This document shows, piece after piece, positions 1 through 4,234 of a stretch of 4,234 bases of DNA. Within the stretch, counting starts at the first letter, position 1; each line of letters starts with the position of its first letter. The translations under genes and the position numbers were made by a program. This DNA comes from a plasmid: NCBI RefSeq assembly GCF_056746865.1, contig NZ_JBWKMP010000009.1. One strand, written 5' to 3'. Below the pieces are notes generated by a model, which ran no database searches, was not told the origin of the DNA, and saw nothing but the letters and a program-made list of their open reading frames with translations.

Positions 1-50
1 GCACACAATCGAAACGAAGTGAAGATTGTATAAGTGCGCACTTCGTGATG
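1..50. other. oriT: Putative MOBQ-type origin of transfer (oriT): nic-like core TAAGTGCGC at 31-39 inside a perfect 12-bp palindrome AAGTGCGCACTT (32-43), flanked by short inverted repeats
   Basis: Seen in sequence: TAAGTGCGC at 31-39 matches the nic-region core I recall for RSF1010/R1162 oriT (GTAAGTGCGCCCT). Inverted repeats at 14-21/39-46 (ACGAAGTG/CACTTCGT) and 5-10/24-29 (ACAATC/GATTGT). Position fits a divergent mobA-oriT-mobC arrangement if the window is circular. Recognition is from memory; no alignment was run. Confidence 0.45.
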
Positions 51-73
51 TGCCGTGCATTATGCCAGCTCAG

Positions 74-132
74 TTTTTAAACTACCAGTGACGCGATAAA
101 ATGCGATTTTTCATCGCGTACGGAGTTACATC
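74..132 (+). promoter_or_regulatory. Putative mobC promoter and operator region: -35-like TTTAAA (76-81), -10-like TAAAAT (97-102), CGCGAT/GCGAT/ATCGCG repeat set (92-118), SD GGAG (122-125)
   Basis: Seen in sequence: sigma70-like hexamers with a short 15-bp spacer. A small hairpin GCGAT-TTTTC-ATCGC (103-117) lies between the -10 and the SD, and CGCGAT (92-97) pairs with ATCGCG (113-118). GGAG sits 7 nt before the ATG at 133. Promoter assignment is inference only. Confidence 0.3.
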
Positions 133-408
133 ATGAGCAGAACGCTCGAACAGAAGATTGCCGAAGCTGAGGCCAGATTACAGCGCCTGAAGGCGAAGAG
201 CCGGAGCCTGGACACTGCGCAAAAAGTCATTGTGGGAGCAGCCATGCTGGCGAGGGTACGGAGGCCGGAAGAGGCGCAACTGCGTGCGTTCCTGCTCCAG
301 TTCCTGCGAAAGGAAGTCACAAGACAGGCCGATGTGAACCGGCTACAACCACTGATTAACGAGCTGGAGAAGCTACCAAGACCACCTGCGAAACCGCAGA
401 ACGGATAA
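133..408 (+). CDS. mobC: MobC/TraD-family relaxosome accessory protein, 91 aa (MOBQ mobilization accessory protein)
   Basis: ORF with an SD. The N-terminal coiled-coil-like segment (EQKIAEAEARLQRLKAK) and central motif QKVIVGAAMLARV resemble RSF1010 MobC (about 94 aa; recalled motif RKVLVGAMILAKV). Small size and apparent divergent placement relative to mobA across oriT fit. Homology is recalled, not searched. Confidence 0.75.
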   Translation: MSRTLEQKIAEAEARLQRLKAKSRSLDTAQKVIVGAAMLARVRRPEEAQLRAFLLQFLRKEVTRQADVNRLQPLINELEKLPRPPAKPQNG

Positions 409-574
409 GCCCCGGCGCGTAAGTGCCACATGCACCACCGGACGCCTTTGCGCTTCCTCGCACATTCGCTCGCTACGCTCGGTCATGAGGCTGCGGCGAG
501 CGCTACCACCGCAATCACGAGGAAACCAGCGCCATTGCTGGGCGGAACCGGAAAAACCGCAGGAACGCCAACAG

Positions 575-620
575 CTCAAAAAAGCGCCGAAAAGGCGCTG
601 TTATCTGATAAGGCTATTTG
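575..620 (-). other. ori: ColE2-type origin of vegetative replication (Rep binding and primer synthesis site), abutting and overlapping the rep stop codon
   Basis: The minus strand reads AAATAGCCTTATCAGATAACAGCGCCTTTTCGGCGCTTTTTTGAG. The block AGCCTTATCAGATAACAGCGCC (plus coordinates 594-615) matches what I recall of the ColE2-P9 minimal origin, and ColE2 ori is known to lie immediately 3' of rep. Recalled, not aligned. Confidence 0.6.
577..599 (-). terminator. Hairpin AGCGCC-GAAAA-GGCGCT followed on the minus strand by T6; probable intrinsic terminator for rep, embedded in the ori
   Basis: Seen in sequence: 6-bp GC-rich stem (583-588/594-599) with a 5-nt loop. On the minus strand it is followed directly by TTTTTTGAG. 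It lies 15 nt downstream of the rep stop codon. Confidence 0.45.
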
Positions 621-1522
621 TGCATTGCCCAATTACGGATCGTATTTCGATGTACATCCAGCATCGCCGCAATAGCTTTCTGAGAATATCCATTCTCCAG
701 CATACATAGCGCCATGAAACGCTTGTCCTCGTAGGCTTCGCCTTTAGCAAGGCCACCTTTCCGGCCTCGAGCGGCCTGTACAGCGGAAAAGCCTTCCGGT
801 GAGAATTTTCTGTGCGTGTATTTCGCAATGCTCTTGCCAATAGCCCGGCATTCAGCCAGTGAAAGAGGAACGGGAAGCGATGCGTTGTACATTTCGACAC
901 GCTGGATCACGGCATCAAGCCACTGTGAGAATGCTGGCCATCCCTGACGAATCGCTCTGTAAGCCCATTTACGCGTTATTTCGAACAGGTGGCAGTTTCG
1001 CCCCAGCCCGTAATGTTTATCGACGCTACGACGCTCTGAGGCGCTCAAATCGAGATAATCAGCCAGTTCATCGAGGGTATAGGCTTCCTCGCGCCACTCC
1101 ATCACCTGCCATTCCAGGTGGAACGGATTTTTGCAAATCAGTCCGCTGTAGTTCACATCTGCGTCAAGTTTCTCACACAGCGCACGTTCAATTGCAGCGG
1201 CGTATTTCAGCACCTTAACCGACGCATCAGGCGCGGTTCTCACGGCAAGATTGAGCGCGTATAGCAGGTGAGCGTGCCCATTCACGGGATTTTTTACGGT
1301 GATGTTCGGCGCGGGGGCGTTCCGGTCGCTCCAGTCAATCGCAGCCCCCTCGCGGTCAACGTCAAAAACCAGCCAGTGTTGCGCATGTGGCTGGTTCTGC
1401 TGAATGTACCGCGCAAGAAGCGCACGCCCTTTGCCGGAGATGCGAAGGCCGAAAGCGGGATCATCCGTGTGATAGGGACGGTGAGGTAAATTTTCTTCGA
1501 AGTATTGAAGCGCGGCGCTCAT
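614..1522 (-). CDS. rep: ColE2-type plasmid replication initiator Rep, 302 aa (plasmid-specified primase with C-terminal HTH DNA-binding region)
   Basis: A 302-aa ORF matching the size of ColE2-family Rep (about 35 kDa). The C-terminal stretch SQKAIAAMLDVHRNTIRNW is HTH-like. The conserved ColE2 ori block sits immediately downstream. SD GGAAGGA lies about 9 nt upstream of the ATG. Overall similarity to ColE2/ColE3 Rep is from memory. Confidence 0.9.
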   Translation of the reverse strand: MSAALQYFEENLPHRPYHTDDPAFGLRISGKGRALLARYIQQNQPHAQHWLVFDVDREGAAIDWSDRNAPAPNITVKNPVNGHAHLLYALNLAVRTAPDASVKVLKYAAAIERALCEKLDADVNYSGLICKNPFHLEWQVMEWREEAYTLDELADYLDLSASERRSVDKHYGLGRNCHLFEITRKWAYRAIRQGWPAFSQWLDAVIQRVEMYNASLPVPLSLAECRAIGKSIAKYTHRKFSPEGFSAVQAARGRKGGLAKGEAYEDKRFMALCMLENGYSQKAIAAMLDVHRNTIRNWAMHK

Positions 1523-1529
1523 GTGTTAC

Positions 1530-1618
1530 GATTCCTTCCAGGTTATCGACCGACATCGCCCCTGTATCTTCGTGAAAGTCTTGGCGGATCTACACGAATT
1601 TCAGGGGCGTTTGTTTTT
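1530..1618 (+). ncRNA. Predicted antisense copy-control RNA (ColE2 RNAI-like) complementary to the rep mRNA leader; the 5' end is uncertain
   Basis: Established: ColE2 Rep synthesis is controlled by an antisense RNA (about 115 nt) complementary to the rep leader. Seen: a + strand intrinsic terminator (1557-1618) in the right position and orientation. Candidate -35 TTGAAG (1505-1510) and -10 TACGAT (1527-1532) are weak. The boundaries are inference. Confidence 0.4.
1557..1618 (+). terminator. Long imperfect stem-loop followed by TTTGTTTTT on the + strand; probable RNAI terminator and major antisense stem-loop
   Basis: Seen in sequence: outer stem CGCCCCTG (1557-1564) pairs with CAGGGGCG (1602-1609); inner stem TTCGTG (1569-1574) pairs with CACGAA (1593-1598). 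A U-rich tract follows on the + strand at 1610-1618; the minus-strand side has no U-tract. Confidence 0.45.
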
Positions 1619-1677
1619 CAGTCGCTTACACTACACCCAACGGCAAATCCTGTCGATCCTTCCCGAAAAACCGATCC

Positions 1678-1705
1678 ATTTACCATAACTCCTGTTGTAC
1701 GTACC
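1678..1705 (-). other. XerC/XerD site-specific recombination core (cer/psi-like multimer resolution site): GGTACGTACAA-CAGGAG-TTATGGTAAAT
   Basis: The minus strand reads GGTACGTACAA (XerC arm, 10 of 11 vs cer GGTGCGTACAA), CAGGAG (6-bp central region), TTATGGTAAAT (XerD arm, 11 of 11 vs cer). Reference sites dif, cer and psi are recalled from memory. Confidence 0.75.
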
Positions 1706-1804
1706 CCTTAAAACGCTCTCAGACGCGTTCTGACGCAAAAAACACAAAAAGACAAGAAAACACCAGGCCAAACCAGAAAAACGCGTCAGAATCGTTTTCA
1801 GGGG

Positions 1805-1822
1805 TCTGCATAACTATTCACG
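1805..1822. promoter_or_regulatory. ARG-box-like element (TCTGCATAACTATTCACG); candidate ArgR accessory site of the cer-like resolution site
   Basis: Seen: half-sites TGCAT and ATTCA separated by 4 bp, resembling the ARG box consensus (TGAAT-4 bp-ATTCA). It is centred about 120 bp from the XerCD core on the XerC-arm side, where cer-type accessory sequences lie. Assignment is tentative. Confidence 0.3.
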
Positions 1823-1897
1823 AAAGCGATGCGCGATCGGTTTCGACCGTTCAGAAGCGCGAACGGGTCAAAACGGCAAACTTTCTCATCCAGAAAA

Positions 1898-1938
1898 CGC
1901 CTCACGGGACGCGGAATTTTTTCGTGTCCCGTGAGACG
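1898..1938 (-). terminator. Probable intrinsic terminator downstream of mobA (about 13-bp stem, 9-nt loop, then UUUUCUGG on the minus strand)
   Basis: Seen: CTCACGGGAC (1901-1910) pairs perfectly with GTCCCGTGAG (1926-1935), with extra flanking pairs. On the minus strand the hairpin is followed by TTTTCTGG (plus coordinates 1890-1897). It lies about 30 nt after the mobA stop at 1969-1971. Confidence 0.45.
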
Positions 1939-1968
1939 TTGGCGGGGTTCGGGGTGCAGCCCCGGATA

Positions 1969-4188
1969 TCACATACTCATGCCCCGGTAATGTCCGGGGC
2001 GTCGTTGTTGTTGCCTGTGCTGTTCGTCCCGCTTCCATTCATGCCAGGTCTGATTAAATCCGAGTTGACGGAAGAGATAATCCGGCATCTCTTCCGGTTT
2101 GTGGACAGCAGCCAAAAGCCTGTCATGATGGCCTTTGAGCCGGAACTGCATCAGGTGCGGTTCCGGTGGGTACGGAGTATCCGCATCATGGTTTATAGCT
2201 TCTCCGTAACCTGCCAGGCATACCCCGTTCTCCGTGATGGTGCTGACTATCAGATGACTGTAATCCGGCGACGGAAGCGCAAGAACGGGACGCAGCCCGT
2301 CCTCCTGACGCACAAATCCGACAAGCACTTCCTCCGGCCCTTTGCACAACAGCAGATTCAGCGTCCTGCTGTTTCGCTCTGTCGAAAATACAACGGGCAT
2401 GAGTTGCTCCGGTGCCGCATAAGCGGTGACGTCCACCCGGTGCGCAGACGGCAGCGGAGAGGCTACGGGCCTGCGGTCGTCGCTGAAATAAAAATTATCC
2501 GGCCAGTGATGCGGCAGCGCCGGAAAACCGTAAGAGGGCCACCCCTGGCGCATCTGTTCCAGTACATGCCGGACCGTCGCACCGGAATACATTCTCACAC
2601 GCTCAGGCCGCGCCATCGTCTCATGAGATTCTGGCATTCCCTCACGTATATCCGAGACCATCACAGCCCCGCCTGGCGACAGGTAAACATTCACCGGGTC
2701 ATGAACACTCTGGGGGTAATGCGCCAGCTCATCACCCCATACCGTGAATTCTCCGGCTCTGTTACTCAGCATCATGTAGCGGGTTATCCTGCCCGTTCCC
2801 GGCTCTCTGGCACGCCCCAGCCCCGTAATAACCCCGGCTAATGCCGTTTCACGGCTCAGGCGATGGTTATCATGGTGTTTCAGCCGTGCGTCATATTCCT
2901 GTTCCTTCCGGCGCGCTTCCGCTTCGGCTTCCTCCCTGCGCCGCTCCGCTTCCCGTGCTGACAGTTTTTCTTTCAGCTCTGCCATTCCCGGCGAAATCCA
3001 CGTATTCCACTGCGTTTCAAAGGCCTGACGACGGGCGGGAATGTCCCGTTCTTTCACGGCCCTGTAGGTGCGGCGAAGAGATTCAATCTGTTTCTCGAGT
3101 TTCCAGAAGCGGAGTTGTCTTTTGCGGTATTCCGGTTCAGCCCATGTCATCAGGGGAAGCTCTGACAGGATGGACGCTACCGGACGGGCTTTTCTGAGTC
3201 CGGTCATCTCTTTTTCGAGAATATCCCGCTCTTTCACCAGCGCATTCCCCTCACGTTTGATGTCGTTTGCCTTCCCGTTCATCGCCACGAACTCCGGTGT
3301 CATCTCCCATGCGTTCCCGCATTCCTGCGGCAGTGTGGCAATGAATTCCCGCAGGGTATCCGCTGAGGCATTCGCGGCGGGAATGGTCAGATTAAGGGCT
3401 TCCGCTGCACGACGTGCGGCATCGCTGAGTTCCCGTTTCCGCACGTTCTCCTGTACCTGGATGACTGCCAGCCTTGTGCGGGAAACCTGTATTTCCAGGT
3501 TAAGGCTGTTAATCAGGCGGTTCTGCTCACCGCGTTCTGTTTCCATGCCCCGTTTTTCCATCGCACAGGCAGCCTTTCCGAGGTGAAGGCCCGGCGCTTT
3601 CTCCAGTCCCTGACGCTCGTATGAACGATGGTCTATCTCTTCCTGGTAGCCGGCGTTCGCAAGCGCTCTGTTCGCATGGTCAGCCCATGATGCGCGCCAC
3701 GTCTCGGCGAGTGCCCGGTCGTTCCAGTCCCTGACCTTTCCTGCGAATCCCGTTTCCCCGACAGCTCTCGTGGTCAGCATGATGTGTGCATGGGGGTTGG
3801 TCCGGTCCATATGATGGAACGCCACATCGGCAATCATGCCCCGACTGACAAAGTTTTCCCGGACAAAAGCGAGAACGGCCTCCCGTGCGGCCTCGCGGGA
3901 AATCTCACGGGGAATGGCGAGTTCAATCTCCCTTGCCAGCTGGGAGTTCCGGCGCTGTTCGGCTTTCTCGACCGCATTCCAGAGAACGGAACGGTCACCA
4001 CACCAGGACGGTGCATTCACAGGGGTGAGAATGACCGCATCATCAACGCCGCGTTTACGGGTGTAATCGTGGGTTAATCCGGTACGGTCATCGGGTATGA
4101 CAGAGCCGGAACGGTAGGCAGCAGAAGCAACGGCACTGTAGCCGTTTTTTCGCGAAATGATTTTCATGCTGAGATGATAAATCGCCAT
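1969..4188 (-). CDS. mobA: MOBQ-family relaxase MobA (MobA/MobL-type), 739 aa: N-terminal relaxase domain, charged coiled-coil linker, about 295-aa C-terminal domain of unknown function
   Basis: The N-terminus MAIYHLSMKIISRKNGYSAVASAAYRSG closely resembles RSF1010 MobA (MAIYHLTAKTGSRSGG...), with the catalytic Tyr at residue 25 (codon 4114-4116). His-rich metal-binding motif HHMDRTNPHAHIM is at residues 125-137 (about 3778-3816). The charged linker spans residues about 405-440. The C-terminal domain (about 1972-2856) was not recognized. Confidence 0.9.
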   Translation of the reverse strand: MAIYHLSMKIISRKNGYSAVASAAYRSGSVIPDDRTGLTHDYTRKRGVDDAVILTPVNAPSWCGDRSVLWNAVEKAEQRRNSQLAREIELAIPREISREAAREAVLAFVRENFVSRGMIADVAFHHMDRTNPHAHIMLTTRAVGETGFAGKVRDWNDRALAETWRASWADHANRALANAGYQEEIDHRSYERQGLEKAPGLHLGKAACAMEKRGMETERGEQNRLINSLNLEIQVSRTRLAVIQVQENVRKRELSDAARRAAEALNLTIPAANASADTLREFIATLPQECGNAWEMTPEFVAMNGKANDIKREGNALVKERDILEKEMTGLRKARPVASILSELPLMTWAEPEYRKRQLRFWKLEKQIESLRRTYRAVKERDIPARRQAFETQWNTWISPGMAELKEKLSAREAERRREEAEAEARRKEQEYDARLKHHDNHRLSRETALAGVITGLGRAREPGTGRITRYMMLSNRAGEFTVWGDELAHYPQSVHDPVNVYLSPGGAVMVSDIREGMPESHETMARPERVRMYSGATVRHVLEQMRQGWPSYGFPALPHHWPDNFYFSDDRRPVASPLPSAHRVDVTAYAAPEQLMPVVFSTERNSRTLNLLLCKGPEEVLVGFVRQEDGLRPVLALPSPDYSHLIVSTITENGVCLAGYGEAINHDADTPYPPEPHLMQFRLKGHHDRLLAAVHKPEEMPDYLFRQLGFNQTWHEWKRDEQHRQQQRRPGHYRGMSM

Positions 4189-4234
4189 TTCTGCCGTAAT
4201 GCCTTTTTGCCGTTTTCTTTTAGCGTCGCAGACC

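Follow-up and report, generated by a model that had tools for sequence, protein, structure and literature searches.

General features of the plasmid

The 4,234-bp stretch of DNA analysed here (hereafter the window) almost certainly represents one complete copy of a small, cryptic and mobilizable enterobacterial plasmid, which belongs to the MOBQ42 subgroup of MOBQ4, has a ColE2-type replicon and lacks a colicin operon.

1-4234 (no strand): complete unit of a circular 4234-bp plasmid, opened inside the oriT region, as indicated by circular records of the same length, an ungapped alignment after rotation and contiguous ends

At least 14 independent circular database records have a length of exactly 4234 bp and are 98.5-99.4% identical to the window. 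Once rotated, the window aligns without any gap with one of these, pSI102-4, from which it differs at 34 positions, and its joined ends (4151-4234 followed by 1-80, a 164-bp query) are found unbroken and 100% identical in three circular records (NZ_CP080169.1, NZ_CP080160.1 and NZ_CP100536.1). This bears out the first-pass annotation, in which the window was considered a complete circular molecule. No identical record was found in databases, the best matches being 99.4% and 99.2% identical.

It is very improbable that the window stems from something other than a free monomer, for instance from a tandem dimer, from a cointegrate formed with a conjugative plasmid or from a copy inserted in a chromosome, of which it would be a single unit. 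A dimer or cointegrate source would look the same in sequence alone, two matching places do occur within one 9009-bp record, some relatives range from 4.3 to 8 kb and 6 of the 2062 matching places in E. coli genomes are chromosomal. Such a source is however difficult to reconcile with a window that has the exact unit length of so many independently assembled circular records, that aligns without gaps to one of them, that has ends running uninterrupted into each other in three circular plasmids, and that displays neither terminal duplication nor foreign sequence at these ends.

Only three genes are supported in this free monomer, namely mobC, rep and mobA. None of the other ORFs has a Pfam match, and the window contains no tRNA gene and no colicin, resistance or toxin-antitoxin gene. 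Both the ORF list and the Pfam search agree with the earlier view that the coding capacity is limited to replication and mobilization, without cargo. The non-coding parts comprise a nick-site core, a ColE2-type origin, a candidate antisense RNA, a cer-like XerCD site, a primosome-assembly-like sequence and a mobA terminator.

The mobilization region

1-132 (no strand): remaining 132 bp of the mobA-mobC intergenic region, with oriT and divergent promoters
4-46 (plus): pair of overlapping inverted repeats surrounding the nick core, read from the sequence
31-42 (plus): nick-site core TAAGTGCGCACT, 1 mismatch to the MOBQ consensus TAAGTGCGCCCT
59-88 (minus): most likely mobA promoter candidate, with CTGGTA (88-83) as -35 and TGgCATAAT, which ends at 59, as extended -10, from a consensus scan of the joined junction
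74-119 (plus): candidate mobC promoter, -10 TAAAAT at 97-102
133-408 (plus): mobC, 91-aa relaxase accessory protein, identified by its homologues and a match to RSF1010 MobC
1896-1940 (minus): mobA terminator hairpin with 21-nt arms followed by TTTTCTGG, identified as an inverted repeat and by RNA folding
1969-4188 (minus): mobA, 739-aa MOBQ4 relaxase, identified by NCBIfam MobQ, PF03389, PDB matches and catalytic residues
3589-4188 (minus): relaxase (HUH nuclease) domain, MobA residues 1-200, identified by domain, PDB and residue matches
4189-4234 (no strand): first 46 bp of the mobA-mobC intergenic oriT region, where the mobA 5' leader lies in part, together with a short hairpin (4225-4227/4231-4233)

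MobA scores 259 bits against NCBIfam MobQ (cut-off 200), in accordance with the relaxase class assigned previously, and matches PF03389 (E 1e-69) as well as the NES (PDB 4HT4) and R1162 MobA (2NS6) structures. The motif I tyrosine (Y25), the motif II acidic residues (E87 and E89) and the motif III histidine triad (H125, H133 and H135) are all present and correspond to the catalytic residues listed for MOBQ4 (Garcillan-Barcia et al. 2019, PMC6856555). The mobA ATG was confirmed to lie at the complement of 4186-4188, with 46 bases separating it from the right edge. The terminator hairpin has an RNA fold z of -4.9, none of 200 shuffled sequences being as stable.

Other ORFs on the mobA strand inside mobA are at most 60 aa long and there is therefore no mobB-like frame overlapping mobA, as had been noted; a domain search detected no Toprim or other primase domain in MobA. 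When compared to RSF1010/R1162 (IncQ1, MOBQ1), the plasmid has the same MOBQ relaxase fold and catalytic residues, the same nick core (TAAGTGCG/C, the slash marking the cut), a homologous MobC and an oriT located between divergent mobA and mobC, but it has no mobB frame in mobA, no primase fused to the relaxase and another replication system. Assignment to the IncQ1/RSF1010-type mobilization module (MOBQ1) was rejected, as both the nested mobB frame and the relaxase-fused primase are missing.

Homologues of MobC are 59-99% identical and confined to plasmid contigs of 4-8 kb, where they are annotated as "mobilization protein" or "relaxase accessory protein MobC". Sequence comparison revealed homology between MobC and its RSF1010 counterpart (35% identity over 66 residues, E 6e-7; hhalign probability 84%), a match which justifies the gene name given in the first-pass annotation. 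Deletion of mobC in MOBQ4 plasmids lowers mobilization by 0.6-1.5 log, indicating that the gene is partly dispensable (PMC6856555).

Joining 4189-4234 to 1-132 restores the expected order mobA - oriT - mobC, with an intergenic region of exactly 178 bp. This is the length of the MOBQ4 oriT fragment that was tested experimentally, and the oriT is active in close relatives (PMC6856555). Divergent mobA and mobC genes around a 178-bp oriT region, together with a MobC of less than 100 aa, place the plasmid in the MOBQ4 family. Within this region, positions 4221-4233 show five differences from the common variant, four of which form two double changes that preserve the base pairing (C-G to G-C and C-G to T-A); the same variant is also present in three other plasmids.

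The MOBQ nick-site consensus is quoted in PMC3832669, and 0.01 matches with one mismatch are expected by chance. By analogy with RSF1010, the cut is predicted to occur after G38 on the plus strand. One inverted repeat, ACAATC (5-10) and GATTGT (24-29), ends 9 nt before the predicted cut, while the other, ACGAAGTG (14-21) and CACTTCGT (39-46), encloses the nick core and confirms the oriT-like motif reported at 14-46. The pairing of 14-21 with 39-46 is seen in the DNA fold, yet its stability is that of shuffled sequence (z -0.05).

The mobA promoter had been proposed to be split by the window edge. Inspection of the joined junction did not support this, all sigma-70-like candidates on the mobA strand being located inside 25-88 and none elsewhere. 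Besides the candidate listed above, an alternative consists of GGCACA (54-49) with TACAAT (30-25); both are weak consensus matches (8/12 each). Since the candidates all lie within 25-88, the window boundary would fall in the transcribed mobA leader and oriT. On the other strand, an inverted repeat (91-101/109-119) overlaps the candidate mobC promoter and could serve as an operator.

In the proposed transfer mechanism, Tyr25 and the histidine triad of MobA would cut the plus strand between TAAGTGCG and the following C within the 178-bp mobA-mobC region, with MobC assisting in this step. The coupling protein and the secretion channel would be supplied by a co-resident conjugative plasmid, with IncI1 plasmids such as R64 being the most effective, and, by analogy, mobC would be the first and mobA the last gene to reach the recipient. 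The helper range of MOBQ4 relatives has been studied, with R64 mobilizing at ca. 1 transconjugant per donor, and the MOBQ4 relaxase prefers an oriT in cis while R1162 MobA acts in trans (PMC6856555).

The C-terminal part of MobA

1972-2868 (minus): MobA residues 441-739, a module also present at the C-terminus of plasmid primases of the SogL/TraC type, containing no primase catalytic domain

The last ca. 290 residues of SogL from the IncI1 plasmids ColIb-P9 and R64 are homologous to MobA residues 441-739, with ca. 34% identity, an E value of 1e-47 and 95% coverage. In the primases, the shared module sits downstream of the Toprim and LPD7 domains. SogL has DUF5710, Toprim and LPD7 upstream of it, whereas MobA has none of these and carries the relaxase domain instead. 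The 2019 description of these plasmids mentions only a "low homology to SogL" and does not tie it to helper preference (PMC6856555).

We tentatively suggest, as a possibility that we hold to be somewhat doubtful, that the C-terminal 290 residues of MobA constitute a module derived from, or common to, the exported SogL primase, and that they act as a docking and translocation signal for the coupling protein and secretion system of IncI1 (MPFI) plasmids, possibly with ssDNA-binding. Such a docking module would explain the mobilization of MOBQ4 plasmids by R64 at ca. 1 transconjugant per donor, and the homology between MobA and SogL may be the reason why IncI1 plasmids are the best helpers. The non-relaxase part of MobA, amounting to 540 residues, was absent from the first-pass annotation.

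Replication and putative maintenance functions

448-517 (plus): segment similar to the PriA-type primosome assembly site of ColE1/pBR322 (single-strand initiation signal)
583-625 (minus): ColE2-type origin that directly follows the rep stop codon and has a hairpin with T-run (599-583), identified by its invariant core and position
614-1522 (minus): rep, 302-aa ColE2-type initiator, also a primase, identified by PF03090, PriCT_1, HTH_23 and PDB 3VW4
1505-1618 (plus): putative RNAI-like antisense RNA directed at the rep leader, with a candidate promoter (TTGAAG at 1505-1510, TGtTACGAT at 1524-1532), a stem-loop (1557-1609) and a T-run
1678-1705 (minus): cer-like XerC/XerD core, arms GGTACGTACAA and TTATGGTAAAT separated by a 6-bp spacer, identified by a match to the ColE1 cer arms
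1706-1887 (minus): probable cer accessory region of approximate extent, with an ARG-box-like sequence at 1807-1820

The ColE2-type nature of the replicon, already recognized, is supported by the PF03090 (E 6e-45), PriCT_1 (E 8e-6) and helix-turn-helix (HTH_23, E 2e-7) domains of Rep, and by residues 170-260 that are near-identical to the DNA-binding domain of ColE2-P9 Rep (PDB 3VW4). As for the proposed comparison with Col156-like plasmids, plasmids 98.7-99.2% identical to the window are typed as Col156 in PLSDB.

A 32-bp origin downstream of rep has been described (PMC6856555). In the window, the origin core TATCAGATAACAGCGCCTTTT.GGCG starts at most 25 nt from the rep stop codon, where the hairpin is terminator-like; this core is invariant across the window, pColE8 and a ColE2 plasmid, with the rep-proximal part being different. 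Rep ends in 45 residues that bear no relation to the corresponding ends of the ColE2 and ColE8 Rep proteins, and since these residues differ together with the adjacent part of the origin, the plasmid is predicted to have its own Rep-origin specificity. Rep would bind the short origin that follows its gene and make a primer there.

ColE2 plasmids are known to control rep through an antisense RNA (PMC6856555). The candidate found here would limit Rep synthesis and thereby control copy number; its stem-loop gives a sub-threshold Rfam match on both strands with a fold z of only -2.2, and its promoter candidate is a weak consensus match. Also on the plus strand, positions 448-517 match the corresponding pBR322 segment at 54 of 70 bases without gaps (score of 70, the highest of 100 shuffles being 34). 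This pBR322-like segment may act as a primosome assembly site.

The cer-like core departs from the ColE1 cer arms at a single base (0.00 such matches expected by chance), and the ARG-box-like sequence TGCATAACTATTCA, located ca. 100 bp from the XerC arm, is the sole match in the window (0.07 expected by chance). XerC and XerD arms, a spacer within the 6-8 bp range and an upstream accessory sequence containing an ArgR box point to a cer-type site, and cer-like sites have been reported for MOBQ4-family plasmids (PMC6856555). Multimers would be resolved there by the host XerCD recombinases, with ArgR and PepA. The cer-like site, the primosome-assembly-like sequence and the candidate antisense RNA were absent from the earlier annotation.

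Relatives and the absence of the colicin operon

1888-1891 (no strand): position of the colicin-immunity-lysis operon in colicin plasmids, absent here, from the pColE8 alignment

The combination of a Q42-type MobA with a ColE2-type replicon links the plasmid to the MOBQ42 colicin plasmids ColE9-J, pColE8, pO26-S4 and ColE2-type (PMC6856555), which have the same 178-bp oriT, mobC, a ColE2-type Rep with the origin downstream of its gene, and a cer-like site. Over its full length, mobA is 97% identical to that of pColE8 at the DNA level. These plasmids differ in carrying a colicin operon, in the C-terminal 45 residues of Rep, in the portion of the origin closest to rep, and in their MOB-suite type, which is rep_cluster_2131 and not Col156. 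The MOBQ41 cryptic plasmids pIGWZ12 and pSE11-6 are similar in size (ca. 4.07 kb), with closely related relaxase domain, oriT and mobC, but have an unrelated Rep_3 iteron replicon (PMC6856555) and a MobA C-terminal part that is only ca. 41% identical.

Positions 794-1887 of the window align to 1698-2825 of the pColE8 locus and positions 1892-4231 to 5297-7635, so that the colicin-immunity-lysis operon is replaced by 4 bases where pColE8 has 2471 bp; the cer accessory region ends at this very position. All MOBQ42 members known in 2019 carried colicin operons (PMC6856555). The operon is descriptive rather than defining for MOBQ42, and the plasmid described here does not possess it.

Because the mob region and the region upstream of rep align with pColE8 on either side of the operon position, and because every MOBQ42 plasmid of the 2019 survey had the operon (PMC6856555), the plasmid might be regarded as a recent deletion derivative of a ColE2/ColE8-type colicin E plasmid that lost its 2.5-kb operon. 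This is unlikely when the details are considered: the operon is cleanly gone, promoter and terminator included, with only the 4 unaligned bases, while DNA identity to pColE8 is no more than 89% for Rep and the region upstream of it, and both the Rep C-terminus and the origin sequence next to it belong to another type. This other type indicates that the listed ColE2/ColE8 plasmids are not the direct parent. Moreover, E. coli and Salmonella of human, poultry and river origin widely carry the 4234-bp form.

Distribution and sequence variation

The plasmid type matches in 1143 of 5426 complete E. coli genomes and is common in E. coli, Salmonella and Shigella. The plasmid is already known, near-identical 4234-bp copies having been deposited and typed automatically, and is therefore ordinary. 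It carries little weight as a discovery and its value lies in the full annotation, since database records give only two or three coding genes and leave out the non-coding sites altogether. To what has been published on MOBQ4 it adds the existence of a widespread colicin-free ColE2-type lineage, the kinship of MobC with RSF1010 MobC, and the strong homology of the MobA C-terminus with SogL, which suggests a testable basis for helper specificity.

The Col156/MOBQ plasmids p8_M37H (NZ_CP092240.1), pSI102-4 (NZ_CP050775.1), pYUAHMCS8-2 (NZ_CP102741.1) and pF17EC0098-6 (CP088362.1) are all 4234 bp long, align without gaps and have the same three genes in the same order. The window differs from such deposited plasmids by 25-60 substitutions, which occur in short patches (50-180, 2103-2157 and 4221-4233), each found in some other relative. 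As judged from these sequence matches, the window is a mosaic of known variants, with positions 40-190 identical to pColE8, 2103-2157 matching p8_M37H and the junction matching NZ_CP080169.

Completeness and gene content

The window is a complete, already catalogued, cryptic plasmid of the Col156/ColE2-type MOBQ4 group and an ordinary object; the first-pass annotation was correct in describing it as a complete or near-complete ColE2-type MOBQ plasmid opened between mobA and oriT. A megablast search returned 95 plasmid records that span 80% or more of the window; at least 11 of the matches listed are circles of exactly 4234 bp (98.5-99.2% identity), obtained from human, poultry or environmental isolates of E. 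coli and Salmonella. Further records of 4234 bp occur in complete E. coli genomes, the best being p8_M37H (NZ_CP092240.1; 99.4%). When rotated by linking position 4234 to position 1, the window aligned base for base with the 4234-bp plasmid pSI102-4 (NZ_CP050775.1), with 34 substitutions and no gap. In addition, a 164-bp junction query (4151-4234 linked to 1-80) recurs internally, uninterrupted and 100% identical, in NZ_CP080169.1, NZ_CP080160.1 and NZ_CP100536.1, two of which are 4234 bp long, indicating that the window ends are adjacent in independently assembled circles. Circular records, ungapped alignment and contiguous joined ends all support a complete circular molecule, although, judging from sequence alone, there is a small probability that the source molecule was a multimer or cointegrate. 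The near-identical 4234-bp relatives, which belong to the Col156-like plasmids suggested for comparison, are typed in PLSDB as replicon Col156, relaxase MOBQ and mobilizable.

Three well-supported genes were found (mobC, rep and mobA), and are listed below with the other features discussed.

Features of the window
133-408, plus strand: mobC, 91 aa
614-1522, minus strand: rep, 302 aa
1969-4188, minus strand: mobA, 739 aa
1972-2868, minus strand: MobA C-terminal module (residues 441-739), non-relaxase
88-83 (CTGGTA) and extended -10 TGgCATAAT ending at 59, mobA strand: mobA promoter candidate, 8/12
54-49 (GGCACA) and 30-25 (TACAAT), mobA strand: mobA promoter candidate, 8/12
91-119: inverted repeat ACGCGATAAAA / TTTCATCGCGT, overlapping the candidate mobC -10 box
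1505-1532 (candidate promoter), 1557-1609 (stem-loop) followed by a T-run, plus strand: candidate antisense RNA opposite the rep leader
1678-1705: cer-like XerCD core, one mismatch to the ColE1 cer arms, none expected by chance
1896-1940: mobA terminator, a strong hairpin followed by a T-run that ends mobA

As previously located, mobA begins 46 bases from the right edge, its start codon being read on the complement of 4186-4188. The lack of a mobB-like frame noted at first reading was also borne out: all other mobA-strand ORFs within mobA are of 60 aa or less, and there is thus no mobB equivalent. No Pfam match was obtained for the scanned ORFs of 53-305 aa outside or overlapping the three genes, and the window has no tRNA gene. 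The longest of these ORFs (305 aa; 1924-2841, plus strand) runs opposite the 3' portion of mobA and probably exists only as a consequence of the mobA reading frame, since no Pfam family matches it and no relative has it annotated. In-frame internal starts in mobA, considered by analogy with SogS and RepB', were discarded as none had a convincing ribosome-binding site.

Mobilization region

MobA passes the NCBIfam MobQ equivalog (259 bits for a cut-off of 200), aligns with the relaxase domain structures of NES and R1162 MobA, and possesses Y25, E87, E89, H125, H133 and H135, the catalytic residues given for MOBQ4 by Garcillan-Barcia et al. 2019 (PMC6856555); its assignment as a MOBQ relaxase is thereby confirmed. 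In close relatives, the relaxase strongly favours oriT in cis, IncI1 (R64) and IncP1-alpha (RP4) plasmids are effective helpers, and deletion of mobC lowers transfer by just 0.6-1.5 log (PMC6856555).

The oriT-like motif reported at the left edge was recovered as an inverted repeat (14-21/39-46) around TAAGTGCGCACT at 31-42, a sequence that departs at one position from the MOBQ nick-region consensus NWACCNNTAAGTGCGCCCTYNN quoted in PMC3832669 and for which 0.01 matches are expected by chance. Joining the ends restores the order mobA - oriT - mobC, as had been anticipated, with an intergenic region of exactly 178 bp; the cloned fragment with demonstrated oriT activity is 178 bp as well (PMC6856555). 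Folding of the oriT DNA was no more stable than that of shuffled sequence, so that hairpin stability supports neither this inverted repeat nor the one overlapping it (5-10/24-29).

A standard promoter scan (9/12) gave no candidate in the control regions of oriT or rep, and the promoter candidates reported here come from our own relaxed scan, used after this null result and yielding weak matches. The first-pass annotation had the mobA promoter split by the window boundary. This was not upheld since, on the joined sequence, all sigma-70-like candidates in mobA orientation lie wholly within the left end of the window; with 8/12 consensus matches, they weakly suggest that the boundary falls in the mobA leader and oriT region rather than in the promoter. 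The inverted repeat at 91-119 could serve as an operator.

For MobC, neither Pfam nor NCBIfam provided a family, and a PDB sequence search gave chance-level matches only. Silence of Pfam is explained by the fact that MobC of RSF1010 (IncQ1, MOBQ1) likewise has no Pfam family. Garcillan-Barcia et al. 2019 (PMC6856555) described MOBQ4 MobC as lacking homology with the accessory proteins of other relaxases. Nevertheless, when compared to RSF1010 MobC (query confirmed as 100% identical to IncQ records annotated 'mobilization protein C'), the window MobC displayed 35% identity over 66 residues (E 6e-7, single comparison) and a MOBQ4 MobC profile gave 84% probability (E 8e-6, hhalign). Both proteins share a K-V-x-V-G-A motif after the N-terminal helix. 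The canonical MOBQ arrangement recognized at first reading thus extends to the accessory protein.

The MobA C-terminal module resembles SogL

Neither the middle nor the C-terminal part of MobA is covered by a Pfam or NCBIfam family, and residues 441-739 in particular are without Pfam match. When 1.8 billion representative proteins were searched with this module, 56 relatives were obtained, many of which correspond to the extreme C-terminus of proteins of 1000-1650 aa that carry DUF5710, Toprim_3 and LPD7 upstream of the match and are named DNA primase or TraC. By tblastn, the module was detected in 1836 conjugative plasmids of 85-120 kb with ca. 34% identity (E 1e-47, 95% coverage), the match being annotated sogL in one of them. 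The C-terminal end of SogL, the primase of IncI1 plasmids such as ColIb-P9 and R64, is ca. 34% identical to MobA 441-739 (E 1e-47), and the corresponding region of MOBQ41 relaxases is ca. 41% identical. In the megablast search, 415 conjugative plasmids had DNA at least 80% identical to some part of the window; this part is not the sogL-like region, which is alike at the protein level only.

Export of SogL to recipients through the IncI1 system does not depend on DNA (PMC8406263), and among the helpers of MOBQ4 plasmids R64 performs best (PMC6856555). Together with the homology to SogL, these data lead us to propose that MobA 441-739 may be the part recognised by the IncI1 transfer apparatus, possibly also binding single-stranded DNA; no paper making this link was found in the literature searched. 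In a structural model the module is rich in beta structure and bears weak similarity to OB folds.

Replication region

Rep contains PF03090 (E 6e-45), PriCT_1 and a C-terminal helix-turn-helix, and its residues 170-260 are almost identical to the DNA-binding domain of ColE2-P9 Rep (PDB 3VW4), in agreement with the ColE2-type replicon initially assigned. A text search of the literature gave no match to the origin sequence, which was therefore examined by alignment to the colicin plasmids. The core TATCAGATAACAGCGCCTTTT.GGCG, located directly downstream of the rep stop codon, is invariant in the window, in the MOBQ42 colicin plasmid pColE8 and in a ColE2 plasmid, whereas the rep-proximal part differs. 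Likewise, the last 45 residues of Rep form a helix-turn-helix that differs from its counterpart in the Rep proteins of ColE2 and ColE8. ColE2-related plasmids are known to diverge in Rep-origin specificity by such joint changes in Rep tail and origin. The parallel divergence of the Rep tail (614-750) and rep-proximal origin (600-625) would thus indicate a distinct specificity type; PLSDB assigns the colicin relatives to rep_cluster_2131 and the window type to Col156. This Rep tail is conserved (95% identity or more) in 72 plasmid records, and the ones listed have sizes of 4.2-4.7 kb.

ColE2-type members have ca. 10 copies per chromosome, an antisense RNA controlling rep and a cer-like site (PMC6856555). 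The candidate at 1505-1618, with an extended -10 that is a weak match in the relaxed scan, fits an RNAI-like antisense RNA opposite the rep leader. No Rfam family reached gathering score in the window, the only matches being sub-threshold ones of the rep-leader stem-loop to PK-repBA, and no rep promoter was found in 1620-1760 even by relaxed scan. The sole ARG-box-like sequence of the window is located ca. 100 bp beyond the XerC arm of the cer-like core. Finally, 448-517 is 77% identical, without gap, to the pBR322/ColE1 segment described as a primosome assembly site of the PriA type, and is a candidate for such a site; by analogy, this region would enter the recipient early.

Colicin operon and mosaic variation

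The backbones of pColE8 and the ColE2 plasmid are colinear with the window except at the position of the colicin operon, where the 2.47-kb colicin-immunity-lysis operon, promoter and terminator included, is replaced by four bases (1888-1891), consistent with the earlier statement that no colicin gene is present. All MOBQ42 plasmids carry colicin operons according to the 2019 survey (PMC6856555); the 4234-bp form, present in many isolates, establishes the existence of a lineage that lacks the operon and has a Rep-origin type of its own.

The 34 differences with pSI102-4 cluster in three patches: 50-180, identical to pColE8; 2103-2157, common to the window and p8_M37H; and 4221-4233, common to the window and NZ_CP080169. 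Such a distribution, each patch matching a different relative, points to recombination among MOBQ4 plasmids that would have been co-resident. Six of the 13 differences of the first patch sit inside the inverted repeat at 91-119. A sequencing or assembly error in the last 14 bases was ruled out, the variant at 4221-4233 being found inside three other plasmid records and hence real rather than an end artefact. Relative to the common variant, this patch in the mobA leader/oriT region differs at five positions over 13 bases, and four of these changes make up two double substitutions that preserve the pairing of a 3-bp hairpin (4225-4233 and 4226-4232).
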